Shown: positions 23,421 to 46,428, counted from the stretch's first letter. The stretch is DNA of 64,000 nucleotides from Marsupella aquatica (GCA_973895155.1 OZ316896.1:4531925-4595924), one strand, 5' to 3'. The notes: generated by a model not told the origin, from the letters alone. Translations and numbers: made by a program.

Positions 23421-23817
23421 CAGTTTTTTACTAAACTACCCCCCAAACTGGTCCTTATTACAAACCTGCCCCCAAAACTAAAAAATTTAGTATACTGACC
23501 CCCAAACCGTATCTGGTTACCTTTAGCCCAACTACACCACAACTGCTGCATTCCCATTGGCTGCCAAGTAACCAGAGTTGACTACCTGACCTGCATCCAC
23601 TTTTCCACAGTCCATCGCCTTCTTGGCACCAAAGGGCACAGCTGCGTCCATCATCCATAGGGCAGGAAGTGCACGGAGGCCATCGATGGACGGGGGGGGG
23701 GGGAGAGGGGGGGGAGAGGGGGGGCTGATCCTAAACTGAAGAACGGGGGACTGGGCACAAATCACAACCATTGGGGCAGTCGCAGCCCTTTCAAACCATT
23801 GGGGCCACAGTCGCAAC
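23421..23817. repeat. Left TIR of the MULE
   Basis: Near-perfect reverse complement of 48814-49196, with CCCCCAAA subrepeats. Confidence 0.93.
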
Positions 23818-24909: not shown

Positions 24910-25237
24910 CTAAGGAGTTTTACTGGTGGATGGTTGAGTTTCCATGGTAGCTAGCAACTGAGAGAAACTTCCAATGTTAATGCTCTCTTGTGATTCCCAG
25001 CCTAGTATAGAGTGACCGGCCTGCTCTTCTACAACACAACGAGCATCCACCATGTCCTGCAATTCATTGCCTTCTTCCGCATTTTCCACTGCCCCGTCCA
25101 CTGCTTGCAACTCATTCTGCTCTGGACAATTTCAGCGATCATGGCCTCATGCTCCACAAACCCCACACTTTCGTGGCAACTGACAGACCTCCTCATCATC
25201 AAACCGAGTCCGAATTCGCTTTGTCGAACGACCCTTG
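24910..25237 (-). pseudogene. C-terminal tail of the MuDR transposase, with zinc knuckle
   Basis: Reads KGRSTKRIRTR...RKCGVCGA*GHDR*NCPEQ, a CxxCxxxGHxxxxC knuckle with two TGA stops. It continues in frame from PPLKKRR at 46429 once the insertion is removed. Confidence 0.88.
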
Positions 25238-25505
25238 AACCCCAATTTAAGGAAAACCAAACTTTGGAAATTCCGAAAATCACTAAATATTATTATTTTA
25301 ATAAAAAGGGGGCGACATGACGCGTGGCTGCGCGTGAAACCCTGAAAATGACTGCAACGTCACATTTTAACCAATCCAACTTAACGGGGTCAAGAGACAT
25401 GCTCACGCGAATAATAATAATAGAGAAATAAATCTTTGAGATCCTTTATATATGATAACCAGTATATAAGGAGTTTACAAATGGTTTCTAGAACGACAAG
25501 ACAAA

Positions 25506-26230
25506 TTAATCTGATCTCATGCCGACTATTATTTTGGAAGCGTCCAAAATTGGGCGTCTGTTAAATTGCTCTACTAGATATCTATCTCCATGCCTCTGAA
25601 TCACAGGGTCTTCCCATAGAGTATGATTATAATCATAATCTCTAAAAATAGATTTAACTGACCAATCTGGATAATCTCTTCCATTGGCAATGACAAGCGG
25701 CTCACAAGAGTTTGCTAGCTTGCTAAGATACGGAATCAGCAAGTTAATCAGGAAACTGTCGTCGACCGACCCAAAATATTTGGGCGGAAATAATGATCCA
25801 ACAACAGGATCTAAACAAGCATGAAATGCATAGGATTCAATAAGCATTATATTTTGCTGCAGATACACCTTCGTATAAATTCCAACCTTCTCAAAACACT
25901 TCAAAAATATCCGCTTATTTGATGTCACCCCATCGCATAAGTAACAATGAGACTGGTCCCAAATATACTTAAATGAGGCCATTTCCATCGCAGTAAAAAT
26001 AGATGCTAAAATTTGATCTAAAAGGTTCTTCCCAAGAGAGGACCAGATCCCTACATCAAAATTCTCAAAACAGAATCTCAAGAATTCGTGAAGATGAGGC
26101 CTTGGAAAAATGTATATATTCCCAATCCGAATTCTAGTTGAGACCGCCATCAATCGGGAATGCGGTGCAGTGTAACAGAGTAGATGCTCCACGTCTAAAA
26201 CTATGAGCCCGTTTTCTCTGCTGCAATGAA
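25506..26230 (-). CDS. FCP1/NIF-like HAD phosphatase domain, copy 3 (degenerate motif I)
   Basis: IVLDVEHLL...PRPHLHEFLRFCFENFDVGIWSS...IWDQSHC...LK...NIMLIES. Confidence 0.8.
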
Positions 26231-26320
26231 TCTCCTGTAGAGAAACACAAGAAGATGCATGAGCCCGTATGGATGTAGTCACGCGAATGGTTGCGTCACA
26301 TATTACAGAGAAAACATCCT

Positions 26321-27028
26321 CTACACTCTGGCCATTGATAAGTGATGTCTGTTGAAGTGCTTGATAAGAACTTGATCCGCATGTCTCTGCACGTACAGAT
26401 GCTCCCATATATCCTCGTTCAGATCCCAATCTCGATGTAGATTTCTAATCGACCAGATGGGATAATCGAACTTGTTAGCAAACGCAAGACAAAGCCCTGA
26501 ATTTGATAGCTTTCGTAAATATGGAATGAGGTCATCCCTCAAAAAGACATCATCCAACGATCCTTGAAACGACTTAGCGAACAATAATCCGCATACAGCT
26601 GTCTAGCATGTACGGGAAGGACAGGCATCAATCTGGATTATATTCTCTGGTCGATAATCTTGAAACATATCACATAGTCTCTCGATAGATTTGAAGACAA
26701 TAGTCTTATAATTTTTCTTCACATAACCAAGATTCCAGCAATAATCCCGCGTGAACACATATATCAGCTGCGACAGGTCGGTGCTCGACAACACTTCTGA
26801 AAGTATCTGATAAACCAGTTTATCGTCGAGAATAGACCAGACCATCACATCAAAATGATCATAACAGAATTTTATAAGATCATGAAGATGCGGCCTCGGA
26901 ACGACACATAGAGATCCGATACGAATTCCGGGTGCCGACTTGAGCTGAGGAGTATATTTTGAAACAGAGCACAGGAAGTTTTCCAGTCCTAAAACTAGAA
27001 GTTGACGCGACCTGCTCCACTTAGACAC
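26321..27028 (-). pseudogene. FCP1/NIF-like HAD domain, copy 2 (in-frame TAG, catalytic Asp lost)
   Basis: LVLGLENFL...PRPHLHDLIKFCYDHFDVMVWS...ENIIQIDA. ORFs 26603-27028 and 26321-26584 are in frame across one TAG. Confidence 0.8.
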
Positions 27029-27153
27029 CTGTAAATGAACAATTTGATTCTCATATTATGCAATTGCAAACAACCACGCGACCGGGCGCGTCACTCCCAA
27101 AAGTTCAATTTCAATCAATTTATAAATAATAATTGATAATAAACAATAAACGT

Positions 27154-28063
27154 TTACTTATTGGACTTATCCCGGGCTTCTATAGCACGGTCTTTTTTGG
27201 CAGATAAGTATTTCATAAATTCGTCAAACTTTTCTAAATGGTCTTTATTCCCCTGATTACGAATGATCACGTTTCTCCTCCAAAGATTCGTCTTATCAAT
27301 ATAATCTTTCTCAAGATTTTCTTGAGAGAACGTTGGAATCCCATATCCACTAAGGAGCTCGCGGAATGTCAACTTGTCAATTGACATGTCGCATAGATAT
27401 GGATATAGTTTCTTTCTAAAAAATAGGTCATCATCGAGCCCAGAATATGCATCGGGATACAACGATGAATAGAAGTCATTAAGGCTCGTCTTATATGCAG
27501 CGTCATCGATAAGAATGATATTCTTGATGTTGTAATCTTTAATATCGGCGGCAATGTCCGAGAGACATTTGACAAATAAAGGGATGTCATTATTATTCTT
27601 CCCAATAAGTTGAGTTGATTCTTGTCCCCATATAAATTTAATACGTTTCAAAACTTCGGGTCGAAGTATCAGCCTTACACAAGATAGAATATTCCGTTTG
27701 AACATGCACGACCAGATCGCAATGTCGTATAGATCTGCCACCTTCTCAAGAAATTCCATTAAATCAGGCCTTGGATAGATAACCTTGTGCATCTGTCTCA
27801 CACCCCTTGACCGAATGGGCATCCCAGGGCTGATCTTCTCTGACCAGATAAGTACCCGATTCAGATCAAAAATTACAAGTCTCTTCTGAACCGGTGACTT
27901 CTTTGCCGATGGATTAGGCGCCATCTGTACCTGTGATTTTTGTGCCGCAGGGTTTGGAGAACGTACAGTTAGAACGGTCTGTTTGTTTCCCGCCTCCGGA
28001 CGATCACCGGACTTCCGGACTAGTGCCTTCGATACTCGATCAGGGGGTTTCGGGATAGGCTTC
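27154..28063 (-). CDS. FCP1/NIF-like HAD phosphatase domain, copy 1
   Basis: LVIFDLNRVL...PRPDLMEFL...DIAIWS...FIWGQ...K...NIILIDD. An acceptor at ~28063 joins it in frame to the Ulp1 exon. Confidence 0.85.
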
Positions 28064-28149
28064 TGTAAAACATTAAGAAATGAAAATAAGTTTATAACGC
28101 GAACGGTCGCGTGACTACAAAGAGAGACACTGAAATGAAGTGTATTACC

Positions 28150-28943
28150 TGTACAAGACGGTCGTTCAGTGCTGGAATTCCGCCGGAAATGTCAATCATA
28201 GCAGCACGGATCCCGGTAACTAGGTTACTTGTGGACGTCGGCTTGCGGAAGTCCATGTCAAATAACGACAAGACTATCTCCCTACGGAATTTCTCAATTT
28301 GATCCGCGGCAAAATTAATTCCGTTTCCTTGACACAAGCACTTGGCGTATCTCAAGATAAACACACCACAACTGTGGCCGTCCCTCTGGTGAGGAATATC
28401 ATTCCGATATATCCGTTCCCAACCTGAGAGATCCAAGTTGACACCAGTTCTCCAGCCAATTTCGTCGGCGTAGTACTTCCCAACAATATCTAGCACCCCA
28501 GGATTTTGTCGATTATGAACTAGAGAATCTAGGTACTCCAGCCGTTTCTCCTTCGGATACAAGACTACCAATGACCAATGTTCTTTCACAGCATTGTGTA
28601 CTGGAAAGACCAGTTTCTCGTATTCACTGATTTTTAGCGGAAACTCCTTTGTCCAAGCTGCTCTCTCCTCGTCGAAAATGGTAGGATCCATGGAGAGAAG
28701 CTCAAAATGGTGTGTTTGGAAGAATTTGACAAGGTCTGACTTTCCAACTCTATCGAGAATCAGTTCGAGAAAACTCAAATAAGCGTTAATTATATCATCG
28801 GTGAGCAACTCGCGCGGTCTCAGACACATCATATGTTTCCTCTTGATCGAGTGTTGTAAGAACTTGGTCAATAGCTCTTCCATATCCTTAGAAGGATCAA
28901 GGCATTGATCTATTCGACTAGCCAAATTTTCAAAAAACTGCAA
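28150..28943 (-). CDS. Ulp1/C48 SUMO-protease domain
   Basis: LTDDIINAYL, FPVHN...HWSLVV, YLDSL and PHQRDGHSCGVF give an intact H-D-Q-C catalytic set. Confidence 0.93.
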
Positions 28944-29071
28944 AAAACAGAGATTTCAGAACGCCTTCAAATAACGTACTGAGGTTGTAGCCTAAGGGTT
29001 GTAGCCTCATAAAACAGAAACAATAATAGATCAATAATAAAATAATGACATCTATAATAGAAACTTTAAGC

Positions 29072-31030
29072 TTATAGCTTGCGAATGACCTTTGGATTGG
29101 GTGGATCCGGCCTTTTCGCAGCTGATCTCTTGGGTGCCTCAATTGCAACAACATCCTTCAGCCCTCCTCGAGACCGCAGTGATCGCTCCACTGGACCAGT
29201 TTGCGAAGGTTGGAGCGATGAGGCGGGAAGACCTTCAAATGGTTGTGGCATTTGATTCAAATATTCCACAATCTGGGAATCCGATTCCAAAATATCCAAT
29301 GCCACAATTTCTGCGCGAGTCACCTCTGCAATATATCGGGGTCGAGACCACGAACCCGGTCGCATCAAGTCAGCTGTTAGTCTCTTAACGACTTGAGCCA
29401 AGTCTGGTGCCAAAAACGTTCCCAGGTCTTGCACTCGATTCTCGGAAAAGTGCACATTATTGATGATTGTCTCTATTCTGGATGCAGTGGCAGTCTTCTC
29501 CTCGGTAATCAAAAGACCCTTCCAATATTGCAAAGCAAGGACTGCCTGGACTCGGAGCTGCTCCGGTGAATATTTATTCCAATCATCCAACGAGACCGTA
29601 CTTAAGGGTGGATCGTTAAATTCAAACTCCGGGCGAAGAAAATAGTCTAATATTTTCTTCTTAACTGCAACTGAGGGTGAAGAAGGCTTCTTCAAATTCA
29701 GCCTTATTTTCGGTAGACGTTGTGCCTCAGGAATAAGCGAAAGATCCTTGGCCCTCTCGGCCTCCTTCCTTGCTGCCTCCAGTCTTGCGGAATCCATCTT
29801 TTCTGCCTCCAACTTCTCCGCCTCCACCCTCTCTGGTCTTGCGGTCTCGTCCGCCATCCTCTCGGCCAGAAGCCTCTCAGCCGCCTCACTCTCCGCCTTG
29901 GCCCTATTTTCCTCTGTCACTAAAAGGACACTCGCAGCCTGGGCTTTCTCAGCCTGGGCTTTCTCAGCCTGGGCTTTCTCAGCCTGGGCTTTCTCGGCCT
30001 CCGCTTTCTGAGCCTAGGCTTTCTCGGCCTCCGCTTTCTCAGCCTGGGCTTTCTCGGCCTGGGCTTTCTCGGCCTCCGCTTTCTCAGCCTGGGCTTTCTT
30101 GGCCTCCGCTTTCTGAGCCTGGGCTTTCTCGGCCTCCGCTTTCTCAGCCTGGGCTTTCTCGGCCTGGGCTTTCTCGGCCTCCGCTTTCTCACCCTGGGCT
30201 TTCTGAGCCTCCGCTTTCTCAGCCTGGGCTTTCTCGGCCTCCGCTTTCTCAGCCTGGGCTTTATCAGCCTGGGCTTTCTCAGCCTCCGCTTTCTCAGCCT
30301 GGGCTTTCTCAGCATCCGCTTTCTCCGCCTGAGCTTTCTCGGCCTCCGCTTTCTCAGCCTCGGCTTTCTCCTTCTTCTTCGCGGCAGTTGCTTTTCTAGC
30401 TGTTGCCTTTTTCTTCTTAACCTCGTTCTTTTGAAGCTGCTCTTGCCGGGCCGCCTCTTGTCGGGCCGCCTCCTTCTTTTGAAGCTCCTCTTGCCGGGCC
30501 GCCTCCTGCTGGGCCGCTTCCTTCTTTTGAAGCTCCTCTTGCCGGGCCGCCTCCTGCCGGGCCTCCTCCAGCCTTGCCTCCTCCAGCCTGGCCTCCTCGT
30601 GCCGGGCCGCCTCATGCCGGGCCTCCTCCTACCGGGCCTCCTCCTGCCGGGCCGCCTCCTCCTGCCGGGCCTCCTCCTACCGGGCCTCCTCCTGCCCGGC
30701 CACCTCCTCTCTGGCCTCCTCCTTCTGGGCCGCCTCCTCTTGGTCCACCTCATGTCGAGGCTCATGTGTGGCTTCTTCATCAGAGTCCTCAGTGTCCTCG
30801 AAACCCTCCATCTCCTCGTCCTCTTCATCAGCGTCCTCAGCGTCCTTCATCTCCTCTCCGTCACTCTCTTCATCTCCTCTATTGTCGGAATCTCTGACGT
30901 CGTTCTGCGTATCGGTCATCCACTCTGGATCTTGGTCATTGACATCCCCATCCACGTCACCTTCCCCCTCACCATCCGCATCACCATTGCTCCCTGCATC
31001 CTCAACATTGAAGCCGCAGTCGACTTGATT
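29072..31030 (-). pseudogene. Acidic and charged coiled-coil repeat linker exon (QEEAR and AEKAQ/AEKAE repeats) followed by a unique domain
   Basis: D/E-rich ORF 30677-30955, repeat tracts and ORF 29072-29920. TAG stops at ~30015 and ~30677 sit where neighbouring repeat units have CAG. Confidence 0.75.
29935..30745. repeat. 15-bp minisatellite (GCTTTCTCAGCCTGG / GCTTTCTCGGCCTCC) and 15-18-bp GCCGGGCCTCCTCCT array
   Basis: Directly visible periodicity at 29935-30370 and 30440-30745. Confidence 0.92.
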
Positions 31031-31148
31031 TGAATAAAATCAGATCATTTGATAAGAATGACTCACGCGTGAAAAGAAATGTTATGAATGTCCACGCGCA
31101 TGTTCGCGTGACGCAATAAAAAGTAAGAGGTTTCAAAAGTAACGTACC

Positions 31149-32868
31149 TTGGATTGGCCCACTAGGGTACTCCGTTGGTCGAATGTACAATCGATCGGAA
31201 TCTTCAGAGAGTGCATACTCTTGCAATAATTGATTACAAATATTATCAGGGATATGTTGTTCGTGGAGGACATCCAAAACATCAGCCCTGAGAGCAATTA
31301 CGGATGGACGGTACTTCATTAATTTATCTATACAATTTTCTATACTAGCCCGTACTGGGTCAATCAATGACAGCGTTGTATCAATTGTCGCCGTGGTGTG
31401 TTGCAAGAAACAAGACAACTCCCTATGCGTTGCCACAGGGCAGTAATATTTTACATTGGATCCAGCATCCTGTAAAAAAAGCCGAAAATTAGTTCACAAT
31501 ATTAATTGAGAATATAATAATCTAAATAATCTTAAAATTGAAACCCCAAAATATAAATCTCAAAACTTACCATTAAGCACTGGATCAAGTTCATTCCCTC
31601 ACCGAAGCATATAGCCCATTCCCCACATTGGACGAATTGACTAACAATACTTTCAAAGAATGGAAGTATCTTTTCTGGGGAAGGTGTCGTGAACTCGTCG
31701 CTCTCTTCAAAATTGGATATTTTTTCAATCTGATATTTGGAGACCAATTGGAACTCGAGGGCTTGTGGATCGCCCATTGGCCAAGCTATGAAAAGCGTAG
31801 GTTACAATAAGCTTCTTCTCCTTCGGCCTCCTCTGAATATAATGGCTATCGACAGCAACGTAGTGTGTGTACTTCCCTAATTCCCATTTGATTAAGTAAG
31901 ACTCAACGGGAGAGGCTACAATAATAACCACATGGTGTGGTTTTGCCCCTATCTCGCTAGTAGCACAAAATAACCCCTCATAGAATGAGCAATTTGGCGG
32001 ACACAAATCTCCCATTGATGAGGGATCAAAATAAATCAAGCTCGCAAGGTTCTTGTCTTCACGTATGATATAGTCTGCAAACCCAGCATTTTGTATATCC
32101 TGCAGGGATCGCAATTTCAGCCTCTCACCGACCGGCCGCACTAGTTGGTTTCCTTGACTATCAACTGATTTCTGTATTCCTTCGACCAACCTGTAGAATA
32201 TAGGGTCGATCTCCTTCAACAAATTATCATTACTAATATTTACATTTAAGCACTTCTTCAGATAACCACTCAATGCATCTCTCAACTGCTTCAGCACCAT
32301 CTTGTCGAGCTTAAAGCGATCAATCATTCCTTTGACCCGCAATTTCCGCGCTGAATCTGTCAGACTTTTCAGCTCCGTCCGGGTGGATGTTTCCCCGTTG
32401 AGTTTACTCAATAATAAAATCTCAAACTCAACTTTTATCTTCTTCTTTATACAGAATTGCTCCAAACTCATGCTGGTCGTTGACAACACTGAAGCCTCAG
32501 AGGACTTCCTTGCCTTCCCAGATTTCACTTTGATGCTTCGGTTTTTGAGTATAGACAGTCTTCCGCTCAACATATATTCCGCTGCCTTTCGAAGAACCGA
32601 GTCTGAGCACCCTTGACAAGAACGGAACGTCTTCTTCAGAAGATGATAAGCACACGGATTATCCGCAATTTTGACGGCGTCCCTCTGTAAAATTCCGTTG
32701 TAAATTACAAGCTCTCCTGTCCTTGATCGTTCGTAGACCTCCATCCACTTCTTGAATGTTTCGTCCTCCATTGTAAAGAGAAACGGAGCCAATTCTCCAA
32801 ATTTCATCATTTCGTTCTTCCCCATTTGAGCCTATGGGTAGACAAAACTCGTAGCTCTCATAAATACC
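31149..32868 (-). pseudogene. Helical region plus degenerate beta-class N6/N4 DNA methyltransferase-like fold
   Basis: SLIYFDPSS (DPPY-like) precedes SPEKILPFFESIVSQFVQCGEWAICFGEG...DAGSNVKYY, which resembles HPTxKP...GDxVLDxFxGSG...GRxxIG. One frameshift near 31790 and an intron at ~31472-31570. Confidence 0.5.
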
Positions 32869-32966
32869 TGAAAAACAATGGAAACATGACAATTCTAAGC
32901 TTGACGCGACCGTTCGCGTGACAAAAGTTTATACGATAATGTGATCGAAGAGGGTTATTTATATAC

Positions 32967-34204
32967 CTTCCAATTTGGATGACGATAATGTGATCCAGCC
33001 GCCCAAATGAGTTCCAGATATTACAACACTGTCGTACAATGGTGAGAAACTGTCCTTCTTCCATTGATGTTTGATGATAGTGGTTCAGAGCTTTCGATAA
33101 TCCCATCAAATGAACATTATTGTCGTTGTTGAGCGTTGCCCAAAACATTATAGCTTCTACAATACCGCAAGCGTCTCGTACAACTTGGCTGACTTTGTCG
33201 TCCTCGCTCAGCAATTTGTACGCCATTATTGTGTGCTGGCCTCCGAGTATCCAGAAATGACTGGTCATAATGTCCTCCTCCTTTGGCGATGAATCGCAGG
33301 GCATCCCATTGTAGTCGGGATCTCTGTCGGCCTCCGACTGAACCCACTTCATAGGGACTAAAAAGTAGCATCGCTTCTCGAACTTTATAGCCGAATGAGA
33401 GAGGAGTGAATTCTTTAGCCTATCTGTGTAATCCTGATTCCAGTCTCGGCACTTGATGTGGTCTGGTGCAAGATGACAACGTGATGTCTCAACAAAAAAT
33501 GACTTGCTGTTAAATATATTCACAGCACTATATTCTTTGAGGAAAGAATCGAACAGAGCCCCGACATTCGATGAGGTAATTACTTTCGGAAGATTCTCAG
33601 CCGAGTATACTTCAACCTTGCTCACTGGCGGGGCCTTTTCCAAGCGAAATCCCTGGTTGAAAGGAACTCTCTGGAACTCAAGTACGTCAATAATGTATTG
33701 ACAAATCAAATCTCCCGTTGATGCCTCTGGATCGGAAGGATATCCCACACTAGTAACCTTTTCCAAGGCGTGCCTTGCACCTAGAAGATCATCGATTCTG
33801 GGCTGATTGAAGGTTACATATTGCGTTTGATCCAAATAAATGCTTATTTTGTCTTCCTGCTGGTCGTCGCTGACTAGCAGAACCAATCCCTCTGTACACT
33901 CTTTAACTTTCATGTTCTTCTCAAAGAAACACCCGAGAATTTTTGATCTCTCCAAAACTGTAGCTTTATCATTTCTTGCCACCACAAGACGGACAGCCCC
34001 ATTGCGAACGACTATTCCAAAATCGGATATCTCAGTCGATTCAAAGAGATGGATACTCTTTGTCTCCGTTGTTCTCTCTCTAATTGACTTTCCTCGATAT
34101 GCAAGTATGGATGTCTCCGCGGGAGTCATTTTTGTCTTGGCTTTCTTTCGAGAAGCAGCTTTAGACGAGTCTCTTTTCCGCTTTGAGGTTCCGGTAGGAT
34201 CCAT
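32967..34204 (-). CDS. ParB/sulfiredoxin-like domain protein exon with an N-terminal basic NLS
   Basis: CRDWNQDYTDRLKNSLL...FWILGGQHTIMAYKLL...EAIMF...LSKALN fits the ParB-N pattern R...L..Si...iidGqHr..A. NLS-like KRKR...RKKAK. Confidence 0.65.
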
Positions 34205-34279
34205 TCTGAAACAGACAAATATTGAAAGTTAAACGTTTATTATAAAATACTAACACGCGCATGGTCGCGTCTTGCCGAA

Positions 34280-34810
34280 TTACATTTTAGGAACATTTAT
34301 CCTGACCCAATCTTCTCGCTCATCTTCATCTAACCAAAACCAAAGGTTCCTAAACGTGTCAAGTTCAGATCCTTCAAATCCACCCAGAATGTCCAGCGGC
34401 GGGAGAGTTCTGATGGATTCTGTAAATCTTAATGCTACACTCCGTGAAGTCAAATGCCTTCGAAGCGATTCATATCCTGGTCTATCAGTGAAGTCGTAAG
34501 CTACCAAGGTGACCGTCGCCCATGCACTACTATAAGTAACTATGTGGCACCACTTCTTACTGACTGTTCGAATGGCGATCAAGTCCATGACCCAATTTTT
34601 AATCGCAGTATCCGACAAATTCCCAAGACAATGGAAAAACTCTTTGACTAATGGCCAAATATATTTCTCGACAATATCATCCGGAAGACCGGGTATCAGG
34701 TCTTCAGCTTGACTCCATATCATGTTTCGGTTCATAACCTTTGCACGTGCAATGCGCTCCATCATCATTTGACGATGAGATTTTTGATTCATGTCAAAGG
34801 ACTGCAGCAT
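34280..34810 (-). CDS. F-box-like protein, copy 3
   Basis: LIPGLPDDIVEKYIWPLV...IRTVSKKWCHIV. Confidence 0.75.
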   Translation of the reverse strand: MLQSFDMNQKSHRQMMMERIARAKVMNRNMIWSQAEDLIPGLPDDIVEKYIWPLVKEFFHCLGNLSDTAIKNWVMDLIAIRTVSKKWCHIVTYSSAWATVTLVAYDFTDRPGYESLRRHLTSRSVALRFTESIRTLPPLDILGGFEGSELDTFRNLWFWLDEDEREDWVRINVPKM

Positions 34811-34823
34811 AATATGGAAAAGA

Positions 34824-35411
34824 TTAAGAACAAGAACCTATCCAATAAGAACTGGGACCACCGAGATTCTGAGAAAATCTACCAAACCTTTCGATTAGGA
34901 TATCTCGTTCTTCCTCATCTAAATTCCTATATTTGTTCGTAAACAATGCGATTTCGTCAGAAGTAGTAGTCCCAAGAACAGATATTTCTGGAAGCATAGA
35001 AATATCCTGTCGAATAACTCGACAGACTGAGTCAAACTCCAACTCCTCAATTTCGGGTATGTTGTAAAGAGCATCATTTGCGACATCGACAATCCGGTTT
35101 GCTTGTTTGAGGATAGCCCATAACCTTGTATTTGTAACTAAAAAGTTCCACTTCTTGCTACAAGCTCCAAGCCGAATAAGGTCTCGGACCCTATCGATAA
35201 CCAAATCGTTATCGAGGTATCGATATCCATGCAATCTTTCAATTGAAATAAAGTGTTCGTAGAGTATTGGCCAAATGTTTGAAATGACCAAAATATCTGG
35301 TATTCCTCCAATGAGACTAGAGGAGGTTTCATCCAGCGTATCCCATATTGTTTTCTGTTTCTTTTCATGAGATGAAAGGAAATCTCGAGCCTCATTCAAA
35401 AGTTGGCTCAT
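34824..35411 (-). CDS. F-box-like protein, copy 2
   Basis: LIGGIPDILVISNIWPIL...LGACSKKWNFLV. Confidence 0.72.
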   Translation of the reverse strand: MSQLLNEARDFLSSHEKKQKTIWDTLDETSSSLIGGIPDILVISNIWPILYEHFISIERLHGYRYLDNDLVIDRVRDLIRLGACSKKWNFLVTNTRLWAILKQANRIVDVANDALYNIPEIEELEFDSVCRVIRQDISMLPEISVLGTTTSDEIALFTNKYRNLDEEERDILIERFGRFSQNLGGPSSYWIGSCS

Positions 35412-35476
35412 CCTGCTTTTATCATATCACAAAACATTGTTAGAAGACATACGACGCGCTTCGTCACGTAAGTTAA

Positions 35477-36028
35477 CTAGAATTCCTTAAAAGCGTAGAT
35501 GTCACCCTCAAGGTATCCAACTTTGTGGCATCTGACTGTAAATTTCCATTTTTCAAGAGGGTGAAGAGCATCGTAAGTCTTCGTGAAGAGTTCCCTAAGA
35601 TCTCTGGACATTGACCCCATGAATTTAATTCTTGGGTATTTCTGGAAGAAACTTTGAACTGTCAATGAGAGAGACTTATTTCCGATCGGTTTAGTAGGAT
35701 TTCCTGGGAAAGCCAAATCTAATAAACTCAACTTGATTACACCCAGAAGATAGGTATTCCCAACAAGGTGGCGCCATCTGCGACACACCGAAGATAGTCC
35801 TACAAACTCATCCAATTCCTTTATTGAGAAATTTCCTGCATTAGCCGAGGAATTAAAAGTCTCTTGGATCCGAGGCCATATCAATTCCGCGACAATGAAA
35901 TCTGGAAGCCCAGGTAGTAGTGTTTCAACAAATACAGAATATCCCGCAAGTAGACCATCTTGGCTTCTATCCAAAACGTCAAATATTGGGCATAGATATC
36001 TGAAGCTCTCCAGACCAGGTTTGCCCAT
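35477..36028 (-). CDS. F-box-like protein, copy 1
   Basis: LLPGLPDFIVAELIWPRI...LSSVCRRWRHLV. Confidence 0.75.
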   Translation of the reverse strand: MGKPGLESFRYLCPIFDVLDRSQDGLLAGYSVFVETLLPGLPDFIVAELIWPRIQETFNSSANAGNFSIKELDEFVGLSSVCRRWRHLVGNTYLLGVIKLSLLDLAFPGNPTKPIGNKSLSLTVQSFFQKYPRIKFMGSMSRDLRELFTKTYDALHPLEKWKFTVRCHKVGYLEGDIYAFKEF

Positions 36029-36164
36029 GACTCTTTTCAGCCAAATGATATATCCCAGAGATTATTTTCACGCGACTGGTCGCGTCTACAAATCAGAATG
36101 CATAAACAATTCTTTGAGAGACTGATTTTTTTGGGTCACAATGTGAAATCATAAATGTTTCTTC

Positions 36165-36760
36165 GTCCTCTAACAGAACCAGTCAATGAGAGAGCAACCT
36201 CAGACGCGACTGGTCGCGTCAACTGAACCTAAACAACTATATTCATTGAACCTTCCTTGTGGAGATTTGGATATGGTACGCGCTCAGTAAATCTATCCTG
36301 TTTCCTTCTGACACGCGACTAGTCGCGTCAATTGGTCCTAAAAGGACCCTTACCTCCTCTAACAGAACCAGTCAATGAGAGAGCAACCTCAGACGCGACT
36401 GGTCGCGTCAACTGAACCTAAACAACTATATCCGCTGAACCTTCCTTGTGGAGATTTGGATATGGTACGCGCTCAGTAAATCTATCCAGTTTCCTTCTCA
36501 CACGCGACTGGTCGCGTCAACTGGTCCTAAAAGGAACCCCACCTCCTCTAACAGAACCAGTCAATGAGAGAGCTACCTCAGACGCGACTGGTCGCGTCAA
36601 TTGAACCTAAACAACTATATCCACTGAACCTTCTGTGGAGATTTGGATATGGTACGCGCTCAGTAAATCTATCCAGTTTCTTTCTCACACGCGACTGGTC
36701 GCGTCAACTGGTCCTAAAAGGAACCTCATAGTATTTTCACGCGACTGGTCGCGTCAACAG
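36165..36760. repeat. ~189-bp tandem repeat x3, two ACGCGAC-TG-GTCGCGT palindromes per unit
   Basis: CCTCTAACAGAACCAGTCAATGAGAGAGC at ~36167, 36356 and 36545. Confidence 0.93.
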
Positions 36761-37789
36761 CTGAAACAACTTTTGGACAATAGGATAATACAGTGATACA
36801 ACTGTGATTACTGACCCGTACGGACAAGGAAATCCGAGGAAGCATAATCATTCATTTGTATTCATTCATGAACTTTACAATAATTCAGATGTTTGAGCTC
36901 TGTCATTGTGAAACTATTATATATTAGAAGTTTAGAGAATGATCCAGCTAAGATGATTCAATTTAGCAGTCTACTGGTTGTATTCGTCAATTAAAGGATT
37001 CAGTGTAATGAGATTCACATAACATGAGAGTTTATATGATTAAATTCACAGCGTGCAAGTTTGTAATGACTTACTTAAGACGATTCAGGTTGTATTTTAA
37101 TTAGTGAGTTTGTATGATTCACACATATTTGAGTTTACAAACAAACCGCATTATGAAAATTGTGCTTAACAATCAAGAGAAATTTTAGCAAACCACAATC
37201 AACACCAGCAGAAAATGTAGAAATTACACCTGAATTCTGAAAAATTGATGTAATCGTCTGAGAGATTGACGTCCAAGCACTTGAACACGTTGCTGCGGCA
37301 TTCCAAAAAGTAAATATAAGATTGAAGATATTAATATGCTAAGCAACAACAACACAGCTTCTATACTTCTATACATAGAGCTTCGCTGCCACCAATTGAA
37401 TAACATGTGCTTAATGCTAAGGAGCTCATTATGTCGAGTTAAAAAGACTCTTTCAGAAGTACAATCAAAGCTGTGGATAGGCAAACTTAGCATGAATAAA
37501 AGCGCACTAAACCTGAAGATTCAAAGAGGTGAAACAAACCTGAATGCTGAAACACGTTGATCGAGCTGATATGAGCTTAAAATTGGCTGACACGAGCTGA
37601 TACAAGCACTCCCAAAAAGCTAGCTCCAACGAACTAGCAAACTAGAAGTGAATACGAGCTGTAAATGCAAGCTGCAATGCGCCAACGAGCTCCTGGTCGA
37701 AACGATGGACAACTACTAAGAGCTGCAACACGCCGACAAGCACCTGACCACAACGAACGAGCTGCAACGACAAAAATGAAATCCAGGGC

Positions 37790-37865
37790 AGGAGCGAGAG
37801 CGAGAGCGACGAGAGCGAGAGCGAGAGCGACGAGAGCGAGAGCGAGAAACAACAACAATGAACAA
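37790..37865 (-). promoter_or_regulatory. (GCGAGA)n tract, putative promoter or 5' leader of the leftward cargo transcript
   Basis: The repeat is visible. The role is inferred from its pyrimidine-rich minus strand and from downstream minus-strand splice signals. Confidence 0.35.
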
Positions 37866-39264
37866 TGAACTCGAGACCGTGGGTGCCGACACTAAGGAAG
37901 GACTAATTAGGGTATTGTTTTAGCATAATCCTAATAACAGCCTAGCGACAGGAAGGTTCCAGATGATCTCCGTACACTCCACCATCGACTGAACAAACTA
38001 TGCAATCGTGAAAAAAAGATTACCGGATTCCTTTTGATTTTCTGTACTAAAGGAGATTTCTATTTGATGGCCAATTTGAAATTTAAACCGGTAATTATGC
38101 AACTGCGGATACGGATCTGCCAATTCAAATCCAAAATGTGAACGAACGACAACTTTCTCATGATCGTTCCATCACGTAGTGGAGGCAAACTTCAAAATCA
38201 TTCCATTTTGGTAGTGGAGACCGTTGGATCCGGATCCGTACTCCACTCTCTATCTTGCCAATTCAAACCCTTACTCTAAACAACGTAAAACGATTCTCAT
38301 GGTCGGGGAGAACCGATATTCAAAATCAATCCTGTACAATGATTCTCACGACTGGAGACTCAACCAATTTTCAAAATCAAAATCGAGTCCAGATGAACAC
38401 ATACTCCATGGAGTCAATAGACTGATCTCATTGCTCACGGATCATTCTTCATTTTCAGTTTCTCCTCACCAGGATACTAGTTGGGCTCTCAGCGGAGGCT
38501 GATCCAAGGCACATTTGAGGTGGAGCAGATTGGATCATTCGACTATTCCAGTCGGAGGCGGAGCTCATTCAAGCAATGTTGGCGCAGTTCTTGTTGTATC
38601 ACCTTCAATCTTGGGGAGAGCACATCCGATCAAGCGGGAGAGTTGCGACGAAGCGAGACGACAAACATTTAGAACCTCCATAGTCTGCCTCATTCATCGA
38701 AGCATTCTAGCGGACCAACAAAGAGCGGCTATTCTGAAATCACAGTCTGGTCGAGGATTTTGATCTTGATACGATCAACAAGTTGTCATTCTCTGGTGGT
38801 GGGATTCGATCACGATACTCAAGGAAATTGGAGTTCGAAGGAGGAGGCTTAGTTGGTTGGGACGAGGAGGGTACGCTGGAAGGAAGAGGCTTGGCTGGGA
38901 GGAGGGTTTCCGCCAACATCGGAGGGTTGCCGCCAACATTGCTGAGACCACATGCAACTGAATAACTTGTAAGTATCAATCAGCATTAATTCCACAATAA
39001 ATGAGGAGAGTAGTTGCCTTAAATCACGCATTCAATGCATGAATTGAGTCAATGAAGTTATGGACCAATTTCTCACTTCGAGTTTGATCAATCCATGTTT
39101 CAAGTCCAATACAGAAGCAATGTATCAGAAGTACTAGTAGAGGATCCGAATGAATTCTCTAGTCTATAATTGTATGGCGTACGCGTATAGTTGTCCGTAC
39201 GTTTTGCTATTGTTTATTGTAGTCGACGGCCTAGCAAAATGTAACGTAATCGAGGTCCATTTTT

Positions 39265-40150
39265 CAGATCTTCCTAATCTCAACTTGTTAGTAGGATGAC
39301 CTGTTTTTTGGTTACACATGCAGTTCGTCACGCGCACAGTCGCGTGAACCAATTTATCTCGTGTCTTTTGATATTGTTTATTGTAGTCGACAGCCTAGCG
39401 AATTGGCCAGAAATCTATTTTAAAACCAACGTCTTCGTTTCATCACGCGCACGGTCGCGTTAATGTTTTAGAGGTCAGCGAAAGTTCTGCACTCTTAGAC
39501 GTAATCACCCTTTATTTCAGAGATCTTCCTGATCTCAACTTGTTAGTAGGATGACCTGTTTTTTGGTTACACATGTAGTTCATCACGCGCACAGTCGCGT
39601 GAACCAATTTATCTCGTGTCTTTTGATAATGTTTATTGTAGTCGAAAGCCTAGAGAATTGGCCAGAAATCTATTTTGAAACCGAGTTCTGATTCACGCGA
39701 CCGGTCGCGTTAATGGTTTTGAGGTCAGCGAGAGCTCTGCACTCTTAGACGTAATCGCCCTTTATTTCTCAGATCTTTCTGATCTCAACTTGTTAGTAGG
39801 ATGACCTGTTTTTTGGGTTACACATGTAGTTCGTCACGCGCACAGTCGCGTGAACCAATTTATCTTGATATTGTTTATTGTAGTGGACTGCCCAGCGAAT
39901 TGGCCAGAAATATATTTTAAAACCGAGGTCTTCGTTTTATCACGCGCCCGGTCGCGTTAATGTTTTAGAGGTCAGCGAAAGCTCTGCACTCTTAGACGTA
40001 ATCGCCCTTTATTTCTCAGATCTGCCTGATCTCAACTTGTTAGTAGGATGACCTGTTTTTGGTTACACATGTAGTTCATCACGCGCACAGTCGCGTGAAC
40101 CAATTTATCTCAGGTCTTTCTGATATTGTTTATTGTAGTCGACAGCCTAG
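39265..40150. repeat. ~250-bp tandem repeat x3.5, two ACGCG-N6-CGCGT palindromes per unit
   Basis: TCTCAACTTGTTAGTAGGATGACCTG at ~39277, 39532, 39783 and 40030. Confidence 0.93.
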
Positions 40151-40359
40151 CAAATTGTCAGTTAGAGGAATCTCGATTTTTCCTTGATTGCAAAAATGGT
40201 TACATCGATCCCGAAGGACTTCGGATGTGGAATCCATATCCACTAGCACTATCCAGGAATTTAAGCTACACAGTATCTATAACAAGTTCTAACTTGAACT
40301 ACTCTTGAATCTGTAGTTCTAATCTTTGACTACTCAAAATATTGTTGACTTCGATCGAG

Positions 40360-40902
40360 TCAGTCATTCCAAGATGAAGGCATCCACTCATCGGTGTCTG
40401 GTGTGGATTCCCTTGAATCCAGAAATTCTTCCTTTGCCCAAGTCCTAACGTCCATAGATTTTCTCGGCTTGCTCTTTCTGTAATACAAATCAGAATCTTT
40501 GTTCATCTCTAATTGCCTTTTCTTCGGTGCGTCCACTTTCTTGGCCTCCTTCTTGATTGTCTTAGCGTCTGCTGCTGCTTCCCCCAAAATGGATTCGACG
40601 CATGCTCTGGCCTTCAACTTCTCCCCCCTCAAAACGGATTCCACGAGGGCTTTGCCCTTTAACTTCTCCCCTGATGCCATCTTTGTAGTCATCTCTGTCG
40701 GATTGGTCTCCATCTGATCTTCCATCGACAAATGTGGCAAACAATGTCGTCTCTCACAAAACATCTAACCCGATTTAGTCACCGTAAACATTATATTACA
40801 TCGCTGACACATTCTGTAAGGAGTACCACAAATTCGATACGTCGAACCTTCTGAATCATCCGTCGAAACATCCTCATTCTTTGAGCTCAGCGAAGTAGTC
40901 AT
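40360..40902 (-). pseudogene. Small cargo ORF with a possible Cys4 zinc ribbon and a basic/acidic tail
   Basis: ATG 40902 gives ...MCQRCNIMFTVTKSG*MFCERRHC..., in frame with ORF 40360-40764 across one TAG. Confidence 0.55.
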
Positions 40903-41376
40903 CGCCCTTCAAACAAGAGATGCTGACCGAGACTAAGAATTGGAAATGAGAGAGCTGATGTGCGAATAGATTATCCAGTAGCCAGAAAGTGGAATGCGTG
41001 GGGGAATGAGCAATAGAGATCATCTCAATGCTTTATACTGTTTAGTCTCCACTAGTCATTGTACATAGTGGTTTCTAGAAGAGGGTGCGTGTTTGACTGG
41101 CGCGTATTAGAATTGGCGGGAATTTCAGTTGTCCTCTAATTATGACTGTAATTTCATGTTTGGTGACCGCCCTGGGAATACTGATTGCTAGTGAAGTACT
41201 GAGATTTCTTATGAAGGTCAATAGTTACTGACTGTCCGGTGTCCACTCATTTGTAAACTAGTACTGTCCACTCATTTTTCCTGAGTGGAGTTGAAATGAT
41301 TGTTCGTAATCGATTGTAGTCGTTCTCACACTTGAAATGACTAACGGACCATGCATTATCTTTACCGGTATGTGTG

Positions 41377-41840
41377 ATGCCTTTAGATCCGTAATTTATC
41401 TTCCTGTCACGCGCGCAATCGTATCTTACTTATGAAGTACCAATTACGAGCTAGAGTTTGGGCCTAGCCTTCTAGCTTCTACGTCGTAGACCCTGTACCC
41501 TCTGACTAAGGTCACGCGACATGCCTTTAGATCCGTAATTGTATCTTCCTGTCTCACGCGCAATCGTATCTTACTTATGAAGTACCAATTACGAGCTAGA
41601 GTTTGGGCCTAGCCTTCTAGCTTCTACGTCGTAGACCCTGTTATCCCTACACCCTCTGACTAAGGTCACGCGACATGCCTTTAGATCCGTAATTGTATCT
41701 TCCTGTCTCACGCGCAATCGTATCTTACTTATGAAGTACCAAGTACGAGCTAGAGTTTGGGCCTAGCCTTCTAGCTTCTATGTCGTAGACCCTGTTATCC
41801 CTACACCCTCTGACTAAGGTCACGCGACTAGTCGCGTGCA
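41377..41840. repeat. ~145-155-bp tandem repeat x3 upstream of the transposase, ending in the perfect palindrome CACGCGACTAGTCGCGTG
   Basis: ATGCCTTTAGATCCGTAAT at ~41377, 41521 and 41675; palindrome at 41821-41838. Confidence 0.9.
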
Positions 41841-42204
41841 GGGCAGTGCATTGACTACATTCTGCCTACTTATTGACGGTTGTGACAGGACAATGCAGTT
41901 CACGGACGTTTTACTGGCGCTTATTAGCACTACTGTCCTCAGTAGTTACTGACTGTCCACTCATTTGTTCTGAGTGGATGTGAAATGATTGATCGTAATC
42001 GATTGTGGTCATTCTCATTCATTTGACATCACTGACGGACCATGCATAGTCTGTTGCCGGTATGTGTGGTACCTCTAGGGTCACACGACCAGTCGCGTGC
42101 AGCGCAGTGCATTGACTACATTATGCTTATTGACCGACGTGACAGGACAGTGGAGTGAAATTGACGGACGTGACAGGACTATACGCTTACAGTGATATTC
42201 TCTG

Positions 42205-45200
42205 ATGTGCAGGATCATAATTATTATGGTGACATCGACAGTCTGGATCAGGGAAGGCGGACAAGTAATTATAGGCATATGTGAGAAACAGGTTGAAAAA
42301 GGTCGCGTGATAAGTCTTGATCCTTCCAGGGTTTGTCACAATGTTCCTCTTGGGGCGGACAGAGTTCTTCTTCTATTGGAGGAAGTTTTTGACGAGACCA
42401 TTCTATGCGAAGATGGCAAACTTTTGAAGGACATGATTGGGGGTTACCTTGTATGGGAAAGGAATCAGCTTTTTTGAGCTCCCATGGAATCGGAGGATGT
42501 GTTTGGCACTGTTGGTGATGATCAAGATCTAGTCAATCAAAATTCTGATGGGAACAACCATAATGAGAGTCGGTCTGGTGTGGAAGTAATTTTACCAAAG
42601 GCCTTGTGGATGGGCATGCCTGTAAAGGTGGTGGATGAGAACAAGTTGATATTTGCAGTGGCAACTATACATGTTCTAGATCCTATAGTCAAGCTTGGGG
42701 ATGTCACCCTTGGGAATACACATGTGGGAATTCTGATCAACGATTTTGTCGAGGGAGCTACCATAGATCACCTGAAGCATAGAGATTGCTTAAAATCTGT
42801 GGGAGGGAACACATCTCCAACAAGTGGCAAGCGGTCCTACGTCCATAAAAGTAGGAAAAGAAAGAGTCCATCTTCCCAGACATCTAGAAGAGACACATCT
42901 TTGGCACGTCAAGATGTGTTGTTGATAAACACTAAGGACTGTTGTAGTGAACATTGTTGCCAATATTTGGACCGCAACTTGGCTATGGCAATTAGGCAAA
43001 AGTGGTGGTCAAAATCTTTTGCGGAGCGCAAGGAGGAGGAAATCAAGGCTATTAAAAATACAATACACTTGGGTACTGGAGAAAGGATTCTAGCAGTGGA
43101 GGGCAAAGTATTGTGCTTGGAGGCATGGAGAATCATTCATTCAAGAGGAAAGACTCAATTTTATGCCTTGAAGAAGACTGTGATGGCTGGAATGAACATA
43201 GGTACCCATGGTAATGCTGGAAAAAGGCGTATGTCCGAGAAAGTATCTCAAGCGTTCATGTCAATGAAAGAGATTATTGAGGAGGCAGCTGATCATCATC
43301 CAGCCAAGTTGAGAACCATGGCAGATAATACAAGGATGGTTTTGAGGGAATTGCCAACAAATCTTACTTGGGAGAATATTAGAAACAGGGTTAATGTTGT
43401 CAACCAGGAGGCTGGTCTTCCTCCAATTTCCCAACCCACCTTGAGTCATCTACATCAGATGTATTTCAGGGAGTTCTCACGTCACAAAAAGGGCAACAAC
43501 TTTTCAAAGTGTACAACTTGTAGTGAGTTGCTTCAACGGAAAGCAAACCTTACAGGAGCTAAGGAAGAGTTAGAGGGCCTAAGGCGTGACGAGGAGGAAC
43601 ATCACCAAGACCACACACAACAAAGAATGTGCTATCATACCTGGAGATATGAGTCCATCCATCGTCCAAAGGAAGTGTTATGCCTTATTCATGATAAGAT
43701 GGATCATTCAAAGACAACTCTCCCAAGAATGCCCTTCAATCCTAAGCATGTGGATGGTGCCCAAAAGTTCCCAATTACTGTCACTGGTATCCTTACTCAT
43801 GGTCATGGTCCCAAGGCCATAGCCCAATATCATGTTGGAGTGTGGCCAGGTGATGTCAACATCACTATTGGGTCAATTGATTCAATACTAAGGATGTTGG
43901 AAAACCCAAATCCAATGATCAAATCACTTGTGGAGGGGCCAGACTCGACAAGTCTTTTTAAAGACCTCCTTTTGGGGAGAGCAGATATCTTGGAGGCAAG
44001 TGTCCTTAGAGCATTTGAGGATGACATTGCCTACATCTCAAGCCTAGGTACTTTACTCACAATCCTTTAATTTATTATTATTTAATAATATAAGCTCACA
44101 CACACTGACACTCTACTTTGTGTAGTTGTTGTTCCTCCTAGCCAAGGTTTCATTAATAGGGTTTAAACCCTAAACCCTAAATTGGGGTTTAGGGTCTGAC
44201 TAGGGTTTTATTTAAAAGCATTCTGAGATTGTTACATTGTGATGCAGCACCTGAGGCACCAAAGTTCAGGCCCCTTCCACGAGTATTGAAGCTACAACTG
44301 GATAATTGTGCCTCAGACAACAAGAACAGATATATGATGGCTTATTTGTCATTGTTGACGGCAAGGGAGGTGTTTGAAGAGGTTCATCTTGGTTTTATGG
44401 TGGTTGGGCATACTCATGAGGACGTTGACGGTATGTTCGCGCATTTTTCAGAGTCTATGATGCATAACCCCACATACTCATTGCCTGAGTTAATGTACTT
44501 GTTCATGAGAGCAAGGACACCCAATGCAGTCCCACATTTTCTACAGGAGGTCCCAGATTTCAAAAACTACTTAGCTCCATTCATGTTGAAGGGCCCTGAG
44601 GCATTGGTGGGGCATTTAAAACCCAGGCTGTTTAGGTTCTATGTTCGTCATGATAGTATGCCATGCTTCCAATACAAAATGAAGTCAACTGATCAGGGAT
44701 GGTTACCCAAGGAAGGTATTGAAATGTGGTCATGGAAAGATGACAAAAGTCCTCACATCCCAATTGGGGTGCCCAAACGGCTACCAATGATGGAGTTGAA
44801 AATGCTTCCTGAAGTGCTGACAGGGTTGAAGAAGCATGTGTCATTCTTTGAGTTTATTCTAAAGCGAACAAAAGAGGAAGAACCAAAGCGACATTGGACA
44901 ACTCTCATCAATTATTGGAATGACATTGTAGATACTCTACAGGGTGAGCAGGTGCAACATGAACCTGAAGGTGCACACAACTTGGAATACGGGTTTTGGC
45001 CTTTATCAATATGGAGAGAGCACGTTCCACCAGAATATCGAAATGTGGCATGTGAGTTGGAGGCAATAGTGGATTATGTGGGACCAGCAAAAGATAAACC
45101 TCCTGAGAGTTTTAACCCTAGGGTTGATGTTGTGAAGGGCTGTTATGTGTTGGTACGGCCGGACGACTCAGACCTGGATGTTTATCCCGTCCATATGGGG

Positions 45201-45536
45201 TTAGTTGTTACAAATGTGGTAGAAGGACCAGTGAATGAACAAAACCTTCTTACTCATGTATGTGGCGTTGAGTGGTTTAGACCATTTATGGCAAAGAAGC
45301 AACGTGGTCAATCAGACTGGCAGCCAAGAGAGCGGTGGGCAGATTCTTGGGATAAGAAATGGGAACGTGATCCATCTCCAATATACAAGGAAGCTGAGAC
45401 AATAGATGTTTCCTCTGCCTTGTGGTGTTTCAAAGCACGCAAAGGACCAATGACAGGGCTGGTAGGAATTCCAAAGAATGTTGCTGTCAAGGCAAGAGAC
45501 TATCTCTTGACATGCATAGCAAGTGACAAATCCTAG
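42205..45536 (+). CDS. Sola1/DUF7869-like DDD transposase (spliced, one premature TGA at 42475)
   Basis: DCCSEHCC and CTTC cysteine motifs; acidic triad IHDKMD / LQLDNCASDNKN / GHTHEDVD; intron at ~44048-44247. ORF 42205-42477 is in frame with 42484. The C-terminal beta-barrel-like region GCYVLVRP...CGVEWFRP resembles Tudor/BAH-type domains. Confidence 0.8.
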
Positions 45537-45629
45537 ACAGTAATGAAGCATGTAGTTTAGCATACAGTTTAAAAGGCAACTCAGAATAGTAGTAGCCAGA
45601 GAACTCAAGTTTAGACAAGTCTTATCGTC

Positions 45630-46210
45630 TAAGTTAGTTAGTTGGTTAGTTTATTTAAGATATAATATTAGTTAGTGGGGCCTTAGTTTGGTGATATTAA
45701 GGCATGATATTATTGACATTCAAATGAATGTCCAGTAGACATTGTAATATACAACAATCCTATTAATAAATAATAATTATAGTTACACCCTCAAGTGAAC
45801 TCAACTTTCAATGATTTCTGATTTTATATGGTTCCATGCCTGATTGAGTCAAAGCAATAGAAACTAACTAATTAAAGGGTGATACTATAATTGTAGGTCA
45901 CGCACCCTGGTGCGTGTCAATCTTTTTTGTATTCAACCCTATAGTAATTAAATAGACAAGTTAGTTAGTTGGTTAGTTTATTTAAGATATAATATTAGTT
46001 AGTGGGCCCTTAGTTTGGTGATATTAAGGCATGAAATTATTGACATTCAAATGAATGTCCAGTAGACATTGTAATATACAACAATCCTATTAATTGTTGT
46101 AAAGAAACTAATTAATTAAAGGGTGGTACTTACTATGATTGTAGGTCACACACCCTGGTGCGTGTCAATCTTTTTTGTATTCAACCCTATAATAATTAAA
46201 TAGACAATTG
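45630..46210. repeat. Subterminal ~250-320-bp direct duplication containing CACGCACCCTGGTGCGTG
   Basis: AAGTTAGTTAGTTGGTTAGTTTATTTAAG at ~45631 and ~45958. Confidence 0.88.
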
Positions 46211-46428
46211 AAACAATGAATGATAGTTTAATTAAGGATTTGTGCATGGATCAAGAGGTACTTCATGTCATTTAGTGATGCATTGTTATAAAGATCTTGC
46301 AACAAAACATTCGAAGTTTTTGACTATCCCACCAAATGTTAAAGAGGTTGATCATTCATTAACTAATAATATTTAGATAAAATTGGAATTAATCTAATAC
46401 TTCAGTATTCCTTAAATTGGGGTTCTTG

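Follow-up and report, generated by a model that had tools for sequence, protein, structure and literature searches.

What use would a giant plant transposon have for one short palindrome, repeated at one fixed spacing along most of its length? The question is raised by a 64,000-nucleotide stretch of the Marsupella aquatica genome (GCA_973895155.1 OZ316896.1:4531925-4595924; hereafter the window, with positions counted from its first letter), in which a 21,187-bp DNA transposon carrying a block of cargo genes is nested within an outer, low-copy Mutator-like element (MULE). An earlier reading of this DNA, made without database searches (the sequence-only reading), had described a 16-bp palindrome, ACGCG-N6-CGCGT, and proposed that it is a parS-like site for an element-encoded protein, plausibly a ParB-like one. 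Our computational follow-up confirms that a 22-fold palindrome with a fixed spacer, confined to one element, is a real observation. We give roughly even odds (a probability of about 0.5) to the reading that these palindromes are docking sites of the ParB-like protein of the element, the result of which would be a cargo arm protected from CG methylation in the style of the VANC proteins of Arabidopsis.

A fixed-spacing palindrome confined to one transposon

The window holds 22 exact copies of ACGCG-N6-CGCGT, all between positions 25320 and 41837, whereas 100 dinucleotide shuffles of the window gave a mean of 0.00 copies and a maximum of 0. The constant 6-nt spacer described earlier was also borne out, as a scan of spacer lengths from 0 to 15 found 6 alone to be present. 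Seven exact copies start on the cargo side (25320, 27076, 28097, 31094, 32904, 34255 and 36070), 14 belong to or border on two tandem arrays, one with 189-bp units (36204, 36313, 36393, 36502, 36582, 36689 and 36739) and one with 255-bp units (39330, 39445, 39585, 39695, 39836, 39942 and 40081), and the last, at 41822, is the perfect 18-bp palindrome that the sequence-only reading had reported. Allowing up to one mismatch brings the number to 25, compared with 0.20 expected, and adds sites 26281, 35454 and 42083, the first of which is perfect in other copies of the family (contigs of public runs). The earlier list of sites was therefore correct to within one base, but five of its coordinates (correctly 36502, 36689, 39330, 39585 and 39695) were off by one, and 26281 had been missed. 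With five repeat blocks masked, ACGCG-N6-CGCGT remains the commonest spaced palindrome of the element (seven copies; runner-up, three).

The absence of copies outside the element, also remarked on earlier, withstood closer inspection: beyond 25238-46424, the other 43 kb of the window, including an intron-rich host gene, contain zero sites at up to one mismatch, and the best weight-matrix score there is 6.1, compared with 17.8-32.3 for the exact sites. The further claim that the sites mark the whole element had to be given up. Its last 4.3 kb contain only two decayed variants, 45900 with two mismatches and 46148 with three, so it is the cargo arm that is marked and not the transposase end.

Placement and symmetry of the sites

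Placement within the cargo block was judged on an exon map drawn from splice signals and homology, with inferred introns. On this map, which is our own and partly circular for the purpose, 7/7 sites lie in non-coding gaps that make up 8% of positions. When homology-supported coding DNA alone is masked, six of the seven sites are free, compared with 38% of positions (binomial probability of about 0.014, calculated by hand), and the one site inside the mask is covered by an alignment that continues through an open intron. The earlier description of the sites as lying in introns and spacers, usually one per intron, is accurate for seven of the ten inferred cargo gaps; the other three carry no site, and the transposase intron has none either. 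Presumably coding DNA cannot hold the sites, which would explain their place in introns and spacers, and we infer that they have been kept or regained there over long times. The site-bearing arrays differ in length among copies of the element, and some copies have a 35-bp duplication spanning site 32904 (joint 32925 to 32891).

Across 16 contexts, the half-site follows the consensus TSACGCG(A/C)(C/A)Y, with 24/32 arms reading ACGCGA and a pyrimidine-purine step at the centre in 13/15 contexts. The flanks are mostly unrelated (median identity of 30% over 120 pairs, drawn from about 16 contexts), the duplicates being 41822/42083 and 45900/46148. At the six variable positions, the two arms pair in 4, 8, 5, 9, 8 and 7 of 16 contexts, compared with 5.0, 8.2, 7.0, 9.8, 8.2 and 6.8 expected from independent arms. 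Because the half-site is conserved and the arms show no excess of pairing, a dyad read by a dimeric protein on double-stranded DNA appears, in this small sample, to fit better than a hairpin. A site is kept ahead of exons only 29% identical to each other (the first and third NIF exons, NIF1 and NIF3), and it is therefore taken to be under selection. In the five variant sites, 8/8 mismatches are CpG transitions, which suggests that methylation matters to the palindromes.

Rfam gave no match to the site, and a viral-contig search for the double-site pattern returned only one phage locus (L002), where two CG-rich perfect palindromes of the same outer pattern lie 64 bp apart upstream of a gene (3001-3080); this arrangement is operator-like and apparently unrelated. 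An integron-like cassette reading was set aside as well, as the open reading frames (ORFs) include no recombinase and none of the listed joints crosses over inside a site.

CpG content along the site-bearing arm

The observed-to-expected CpG ratio is 0.71-1.33 in 17/17 one-kilobase bins from the left end of the element to 42237, and 0.16-0.40 in the five bins beyond. With sites and arrays masked, the change point falls at 42408 (support 42184-42974), with a log-likelihood gain of 19.4 compared with a maximum of 7.5 in 300 permutations; this places it about 300 bp beyond the final near-perfect site, and both of the most decayed sites fall in the CpG-depleted end. In coding DNA, the CG:GC counts are 338:332 for the cargo and 41:110 for the transposase (p = 2e-7), and CpG at third-to-first codon junctions stands at 0.90 in the cargo, 0.28 in the transposase, 0.07 in the MULE and 0.96 in a host BRCA2-like exon. 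What is new here is this undepleted CpG across the site-bearing 17 kb and its drop beyond the last site. The pattern suits a cargo arm that would have been unmethylated in the multiplying lineages of the element; it does not prove the sites to be the cause.

A ParB-like protein as the candidate binder

The cargo includes a ParB-like exon (32969-34209, minus strand) encoding a beta-rich N-terminal part and a predicted ParB/Srx fold with the motif WILGGQHT (about 32999-33640), as indicated by Foldseek, VIA and the family alignment. The predicted model of the ParB-like domain has a predicted local distance difference test (pLDDT) score of 83. Its best Foldseek rows are ParB and Noc, at E values of 2.5e-3 and weaker, and in a structure search of 48,161 chains, the top eight all belong to the ParB/Srx superfamily (Z 5.3-8.2; next row, 3.3). 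A closer structural comparison with cytidine triphosphate (CTP)-binding ParB and Noc gave Z 9.2-9.8 and a root-mean-square deviation of 2.3-3.0 Å over 92-97 residues. A ParB/Srx nucleotide-binding fold is thus predicted for this cargo protein.

The nearest named relatives of the ParB-like gene are in the liverwort Calypogeia fissa, in keeping with a bryophyte host, and its family comprises relatives at 26-58% identity. A profile-free search supplied 23 representatives; the family alignment (A6) has 20 sequences, including that of the window, and omits P0063 (a repeat-protein artefact), P0002 (diverging C-terminal half), P0072, P0073 and P0077. A language-model search ranked DUF3723 clusters first (0.95), which we treat as a lead only, and Pfam gave no DUF3723 match in the protein. 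PDB sequence searches returned nothing useful.

The intron that follows (32869-32968, minus strand), which contains site 32904, is the best supported of the map: homolog ORFs end here and the C. fissa models splice here. The downstream exons of the gene (31149-32868, minus strand) have a homolog (P0003) at 54% identity, and three gene models of C. fissa (P0072, P0077 and P0087) place them in one gene with the ParB exon. They encode a helical region followed by a degenerate motif order resembling that of beta-class amino-methyltransferases, seen by eye and without statistical support. The profile comparison gave a methyltransferase no support above shuffles: the DPPY/FxGxG order is collinear but degenerate, and the hhalign probability is 0.4 with an E value of 0.14, below the best shuffles. 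These exons returned no Pfam, NCBIfam, PHROG or PDB-sequence match.

A possible anti-silencing mechanism and its rivals

The ParB-like protein is probably the binder of the palindromes. A dimer would read two half-sites across the central pyrimidine-purine step and, if it behaves like ParB, Noc and KorB, would then close as a nucleotide-gated clamp and slide 1-3 kb to the next site. Host CG methylation would be kept off the coated DNA or removed from it, either directly or with the help of the fused C-terminal domains and of the Ulp1 and F-box cargo, and the cargo arm would be marked as self. The copy in the window is damaged by stops and frameshifts, some of them absent from other copies, and the protein would therefore be supplied in trans from intact copies. 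More tentatively, one may picture giant eukaryotic transposons as having turned the bacterial ParB clamp into an anti-silencing machine, in which a protein that loads at intronic dyads and slides along the cargo arm, fused to a reader or writer domain and aided by the SUMO protease and F-box proteins, builds a 17-kb self-maintained CpG island.

Several observations weigh against the proposal that the ParB-like protein docks at the palindromes and shields the cargo arm. The CpG step coincides equally well with the start of the transposase (42484), and a high CpG content would likewise be expected of cargo taken from unmethylated host genes, the host BRCA2-like region standing at 0.84. Among the private C-to-T changes of the window copy, 16/25 are at CG or CHG compared with a background of 34% (p = 0.002; only the 42 best-supported listed differences were used), and resident copies therefore do get methylated in the cargo arm. 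As to the protein, the fold match is limited to the N-terminal domain and is common also to the enzymes sulfiredoxin, SerK and SbnI, and the position of the canonical ParB arginine motif, GERRxRA (PMC7333895), holds (G/D)GQH(T/S) across the family alignment. Profile searches found no helix-turn-helix, and the region after the fold has no confident model. Searches of metagenome, viral and prokaryote collections found no related cargo-bearing element with which protein and motif could be compared. A Pfam scan of 14 ORFs from the inner element, moreover, detected no ParA family; with GERRxRA replaced, no helix-turn-helix detected and no ParA, the protein is therefore ParB-like and not a member of a ParABS system. 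Of the earlier parS-like label, the functional analogy survives, whereas the literal sense does not: there is no ParA, GGQHT stands in place of GERRxRA, and the palindrome is unrelated to the parS sequence.

Five other explanations were weighed. The one that survives best, although we consider it unlikely, gives the same ParB-like protein another use, either KorB-like repression or timing of the cargo or compaction and bridging for transposition, with the CpG content following from the origin or expression of the cargo. The top fold matches include KorB (Z 8.1), ParB spreading is described as silencing neighbouring plasmid genes (PMC7333895), one site lies in the own intron of the ParB-like gene, arrays are placed between divergent genes, and the CpG step is inseparable from the transposase start. 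However, the transposase end would need bridging, yet it has only decayed sites, and CpG persists all along the site-bearing arm, the old ParB-like gene included, both at silent codon junctions and in non-coding stretches.

It is rather doubtful that a host factor, such as a CGCG-box, CAMTA-type or other CpG-reading transcription factor, keeps the cargo open and the ParB-like gene is a bystander. The CGCG core in each arm and the likeness of the cargo arm to the CpG-rich host genes would agree with such a factor, but the 43 kb of the window that belong to host and MULE, an intron-rich host gene among them, contain zero sites, and 24/32 arms read ACGCGA, unlike the CGCG-box consensus; moreover, we know of no fixed 6-bp dyad for CAMTA.

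We regard as improbable that the DUF7869 transposase binds the sites as its own transcriptional activator, like the AtMu1 transposase and TnpA. Such proteins are reported to recognise cognate motifs and to remove methylation from copies of their own element (10.64898/2026.08.24.746577), and one site does lie 82 bp from the left end, with two decayed ones near the right. However, the binding described in that source is at termini or terminal inverted repeats (TIRs), whereas the TIR here lacks the motif, nearly all sites lie 1-17 kb into the element, and at the transposase-proximal end there are none but decayed ones.

Still less probable is an RNA role, in which the palindrome, as a hairpin or as a protein site directly ahead of the branch point, would steer splicing of a long cargo transcript. 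In 7/8 gaps the site ends 30-45 nt ahead of the inferred 3' boundary, but gaps of 75-130 nt offer few other positions; and although the arms pair in the lowest-energy fold of 4/7 gaps, the gaps that hold sites show no stronger folding than shuffles (z -1.96 to +1.76) and there is no excess pairing at the variable positions. The motif is also symmetric on both strands, most of its copies are in arrays far from exons, and it has no Rfam match. Finally, neutral relics of old intron-exon unit duplications or of a small inserted repeat, to which the triplicated NIF and F-box exons and the 14 exact array copies might point, are very improbable, given unrelated flanks and exons 23-30% identical, yet ten CpG-rich bases fixed where the CpG of the genome decays.

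Relation to known systems

A ParB-like gene beside inverted repeats has already been proposed for Plavaka, and the present element is a variant, not a new kind. PAG3, from a red-algal Plavaka (EnSpm) element of Bostrychia, is likewise an accessory ParB-like gene of a giant DDE transposon (17-19 kb) with nearby tandem inverted repeats, and its best match, 7BNR, is also among the matches of the present protein (10.1101/2025.02.11.637652). In the same source, Petroll et al. propose as a hypothesis that PAG3 binds and modifies its own element, and PAG3 is described as fused to a putative 2-oxoglutarate oxygenase and travelling with a PF01555-SET gene (10.1101/2025.02.11.637652). Unlike the PAG3 elements, the present one has a DUF7869 transposase, resides in a land plant, and combines Ulp1, NIF and F-box cargo with single intronic sites over 17 kb and a CpG step that bears indirectly on methylation.

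The VANC-VANDAL system of Arabidopsis offers a model for the proposed protection from CG methylation. Both are cargo-bearing DNA transposons, and in VANDAL elements too a short family-specific motif is found in introns, spacers and dynamic tandem repeats and is tied to methylation loss (PMC5735166, PMC10398659); VANC target arrays vary in length (PMC5735166), as do the site-bearing arrays here. The VANC motifs, however, are described as 8-9-bp, non-palindromic, in one orientation and in MULEs (PMC5735166, PMC10398659), in contrast to the CpG-rich 16-20-bp dyad here. No VANC-type Pfam domain was found in the element, for which the MULE is merely the insertion target. A comparable principle is reported for Spm TnpA and the AtMu1 transposase, where an element protein on clustered CpG-containing motifs demethylates cognate copies; in that account the proteins are transposase-derived and bind at termini (10.64898/2026.08.24.746577), which differs from the present internal sites.

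Bacterial ParB-parS, Noc-NBS and KorB (structures 7bnk, 6sdk, 7ng0 and 8qa8) likewise combine the ParB/Srx N-terminal fold, predicted here, with many palindromes of about 16 bp near the gene; unlike them, the present protein has an extra N-terminal beta-rich part and long C-terminal exons, is encoded by a spliced gene, and has neither ParA nor GERRxRA. Iyer et al. describe ParB-type helix-turn-helix domains fused to methyltransferases in algae and fungi, which are not the present family (PMC4738411). DUF3723 of the fungal Starships is likewise a conserved accessory gene of giant eukaryotic elements, but Starships use a tyrosine recombinase, and the passages on DUF3723 mention no palindrome system (10.1101/2021.12.13.472469). 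We found no description of the present element or motif in the literature outside subscription papers and bioRxiv supplements.

How the VANC effect spreads over kilobases is an open question (PMC10398659), and the ParB clamp is a ready mechanism for spreading from discrete sites. In this element the site is defined, there is a candidate protein, near-identical copies number in the tens, and the methylation border is predicted at about 42.2-43.0 kb, so that the PAG3 hypothesis becomes directly testable in a land plant. The anti-silencing clamp pictured above, if true, would be without precedent on the chromatin of land plants as a nucleotide-gated DNA clamp, and its border could be read in the sequence; a possible use would be a site-loaded tool keeping long plant transgenes unmethylated.

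Cargo genes and arrays

The first palindrome (25320-25335) lies 82 bp inside the left end. It is followed by three NIF/FCP1-like phosphatase-fold exons (25509-28066, minus strand; Pfam PF03031), each with a one-site gap ahead of it in transcript order (26281, 27076 and 28097). NIF1 and NIF3 are 29% identical, and the catalytic DxDxT is lost in all three copies. In public run X2, a joint (window 27047-28117) returns from the immediate neighbourhood of one site to that of the next across 16 other letters, and some copies may thus carry the NIF unit in duplicate. Next comes a Ulp1/C48 SUMO-protease exon (28151-28937, minus strand; Pfam PF02902, E 4.9e-18), in which the catalytic H, D and Q-C are present by eye. 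The NIF exons have phase-0 acceptors and lack a start codon of their own, and the Ulp1 exon has a phase-0 donor at its end (by eye); alternative Ulp1-NIF fusions are possible. An acidic, repeat-rich coiled-coil exon (15-bp units) with a C-terminal domain occupies 29075-31020 (minus strand), with site 31094 in the inferred intron ahead of it.

Upstream of the ParB-like gene are three diverged F-box-like repeats (34285-36028, minus strand), which have weak Pfam F-box matches and align with each other at 23-25%; sites 34255, 35454 and 36070 lie in the surrounding gaps. An in-frame splice from the third F-box-like exon to the ParB-like exon is possible across window 34210-34284 (minus strand), with a phase-2 donor and acceptor (by eye), and an F-box-ParB fusion could arise through this gap. 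The 189-bp tandem array (36166-36754) has two sites per unit plus 36739, making seven, and the 255-bp array (39259-40157) has two per unit and seven sites; the motif is all that the two arrays have in common. A lysine-rich ORF of 134 amino acids (40363-40764, minus strand), with no family match, lies between these arrays and the transposase. A 154-bp array of half-sites (41377-42098) ends in the perfect site 41822 and its duplicate 42083, and the two duplicated decayed sites 45900 and 46148 lie at the right end (45900-46163), where each mismatch is a CpG transition.

The element, its ends and its insertion

The inner DNA transposon (25238-46424; 21,187 bp) was delimited by end alignment, loose ends at 46424 and depth steps. 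Its termini read AACCCC...GGGGTT and form an imperfect TIR, perfect over 17 bp and similar to about 60 bp. A target-site duplication, CTTG, occupies 25234-25237 (plus strand), with the right copy at 46425-46428; it is read as 4 bp and not 2 bp because the right end is fixed by the contig break at 46424. Six contigs in public run X1 and six in X2 leave the element at 46424 into unlike flanks, and the public runs show a depth step at the right end and another near 25240-25300 at the left. In X1, contigs over the element have depths of about 470-2,500, compared with 11.5-22 for unique flanking contigs. This means that the family has tens of copies, although summed depth is not itself a count of copies. 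The depth of the cargo is similar to that of the transposase, and the 21,187 bp therefore form one unit. Contigs of another run (X6), from a different organism, match only the terminal 55 bases (46370-46424) at about 87%; this end may thus be shared by related elements or by non-autonomous derivatives.

The DUF7869 DDE transposase (42484-45533, plus strand; Pfam PF25273, E 1.6e-36) has two exons, is divergent from the cargo, contains no sites and is CpG-depleted. Its nearest named homologs are in C. fissa (57-65%), a metagenome search with it returned a single 1,449-bp locus (L001), which lies within the gene and has no copy of the motif, and no literature on DUF7869 was found. As in the Sola superfamily, a 4-bp duplication and TIRs are found here, at one insertion only; we take DUF7869 to be linked to that superfamily.

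The inner element is inserted within the transposase gene of the outer low-copy MULE (23425-49192, minus strand), which combines a MuDR transposase (47044-48348) and a SWIM finger (46389-46880) between long, roughly 400-bp TIRs (23425-23817 and 48813-49192) and has no sites. A contig of run X4 passes from left-flank-like sequence directly into the right flank and represents an empty paralogous site. Outside the MULE, a 32-bp inverted repeat with arms 213 bp apart (21666-21942) is possibly a small MITE (miniature inverted-repeat transposable element), and a host BRCA2-like gene (about 12000-19500, minus strand), CpG-rich unlike the surrounding repeats, has six BRC repeats in a 132-bp array at 17261-17890.

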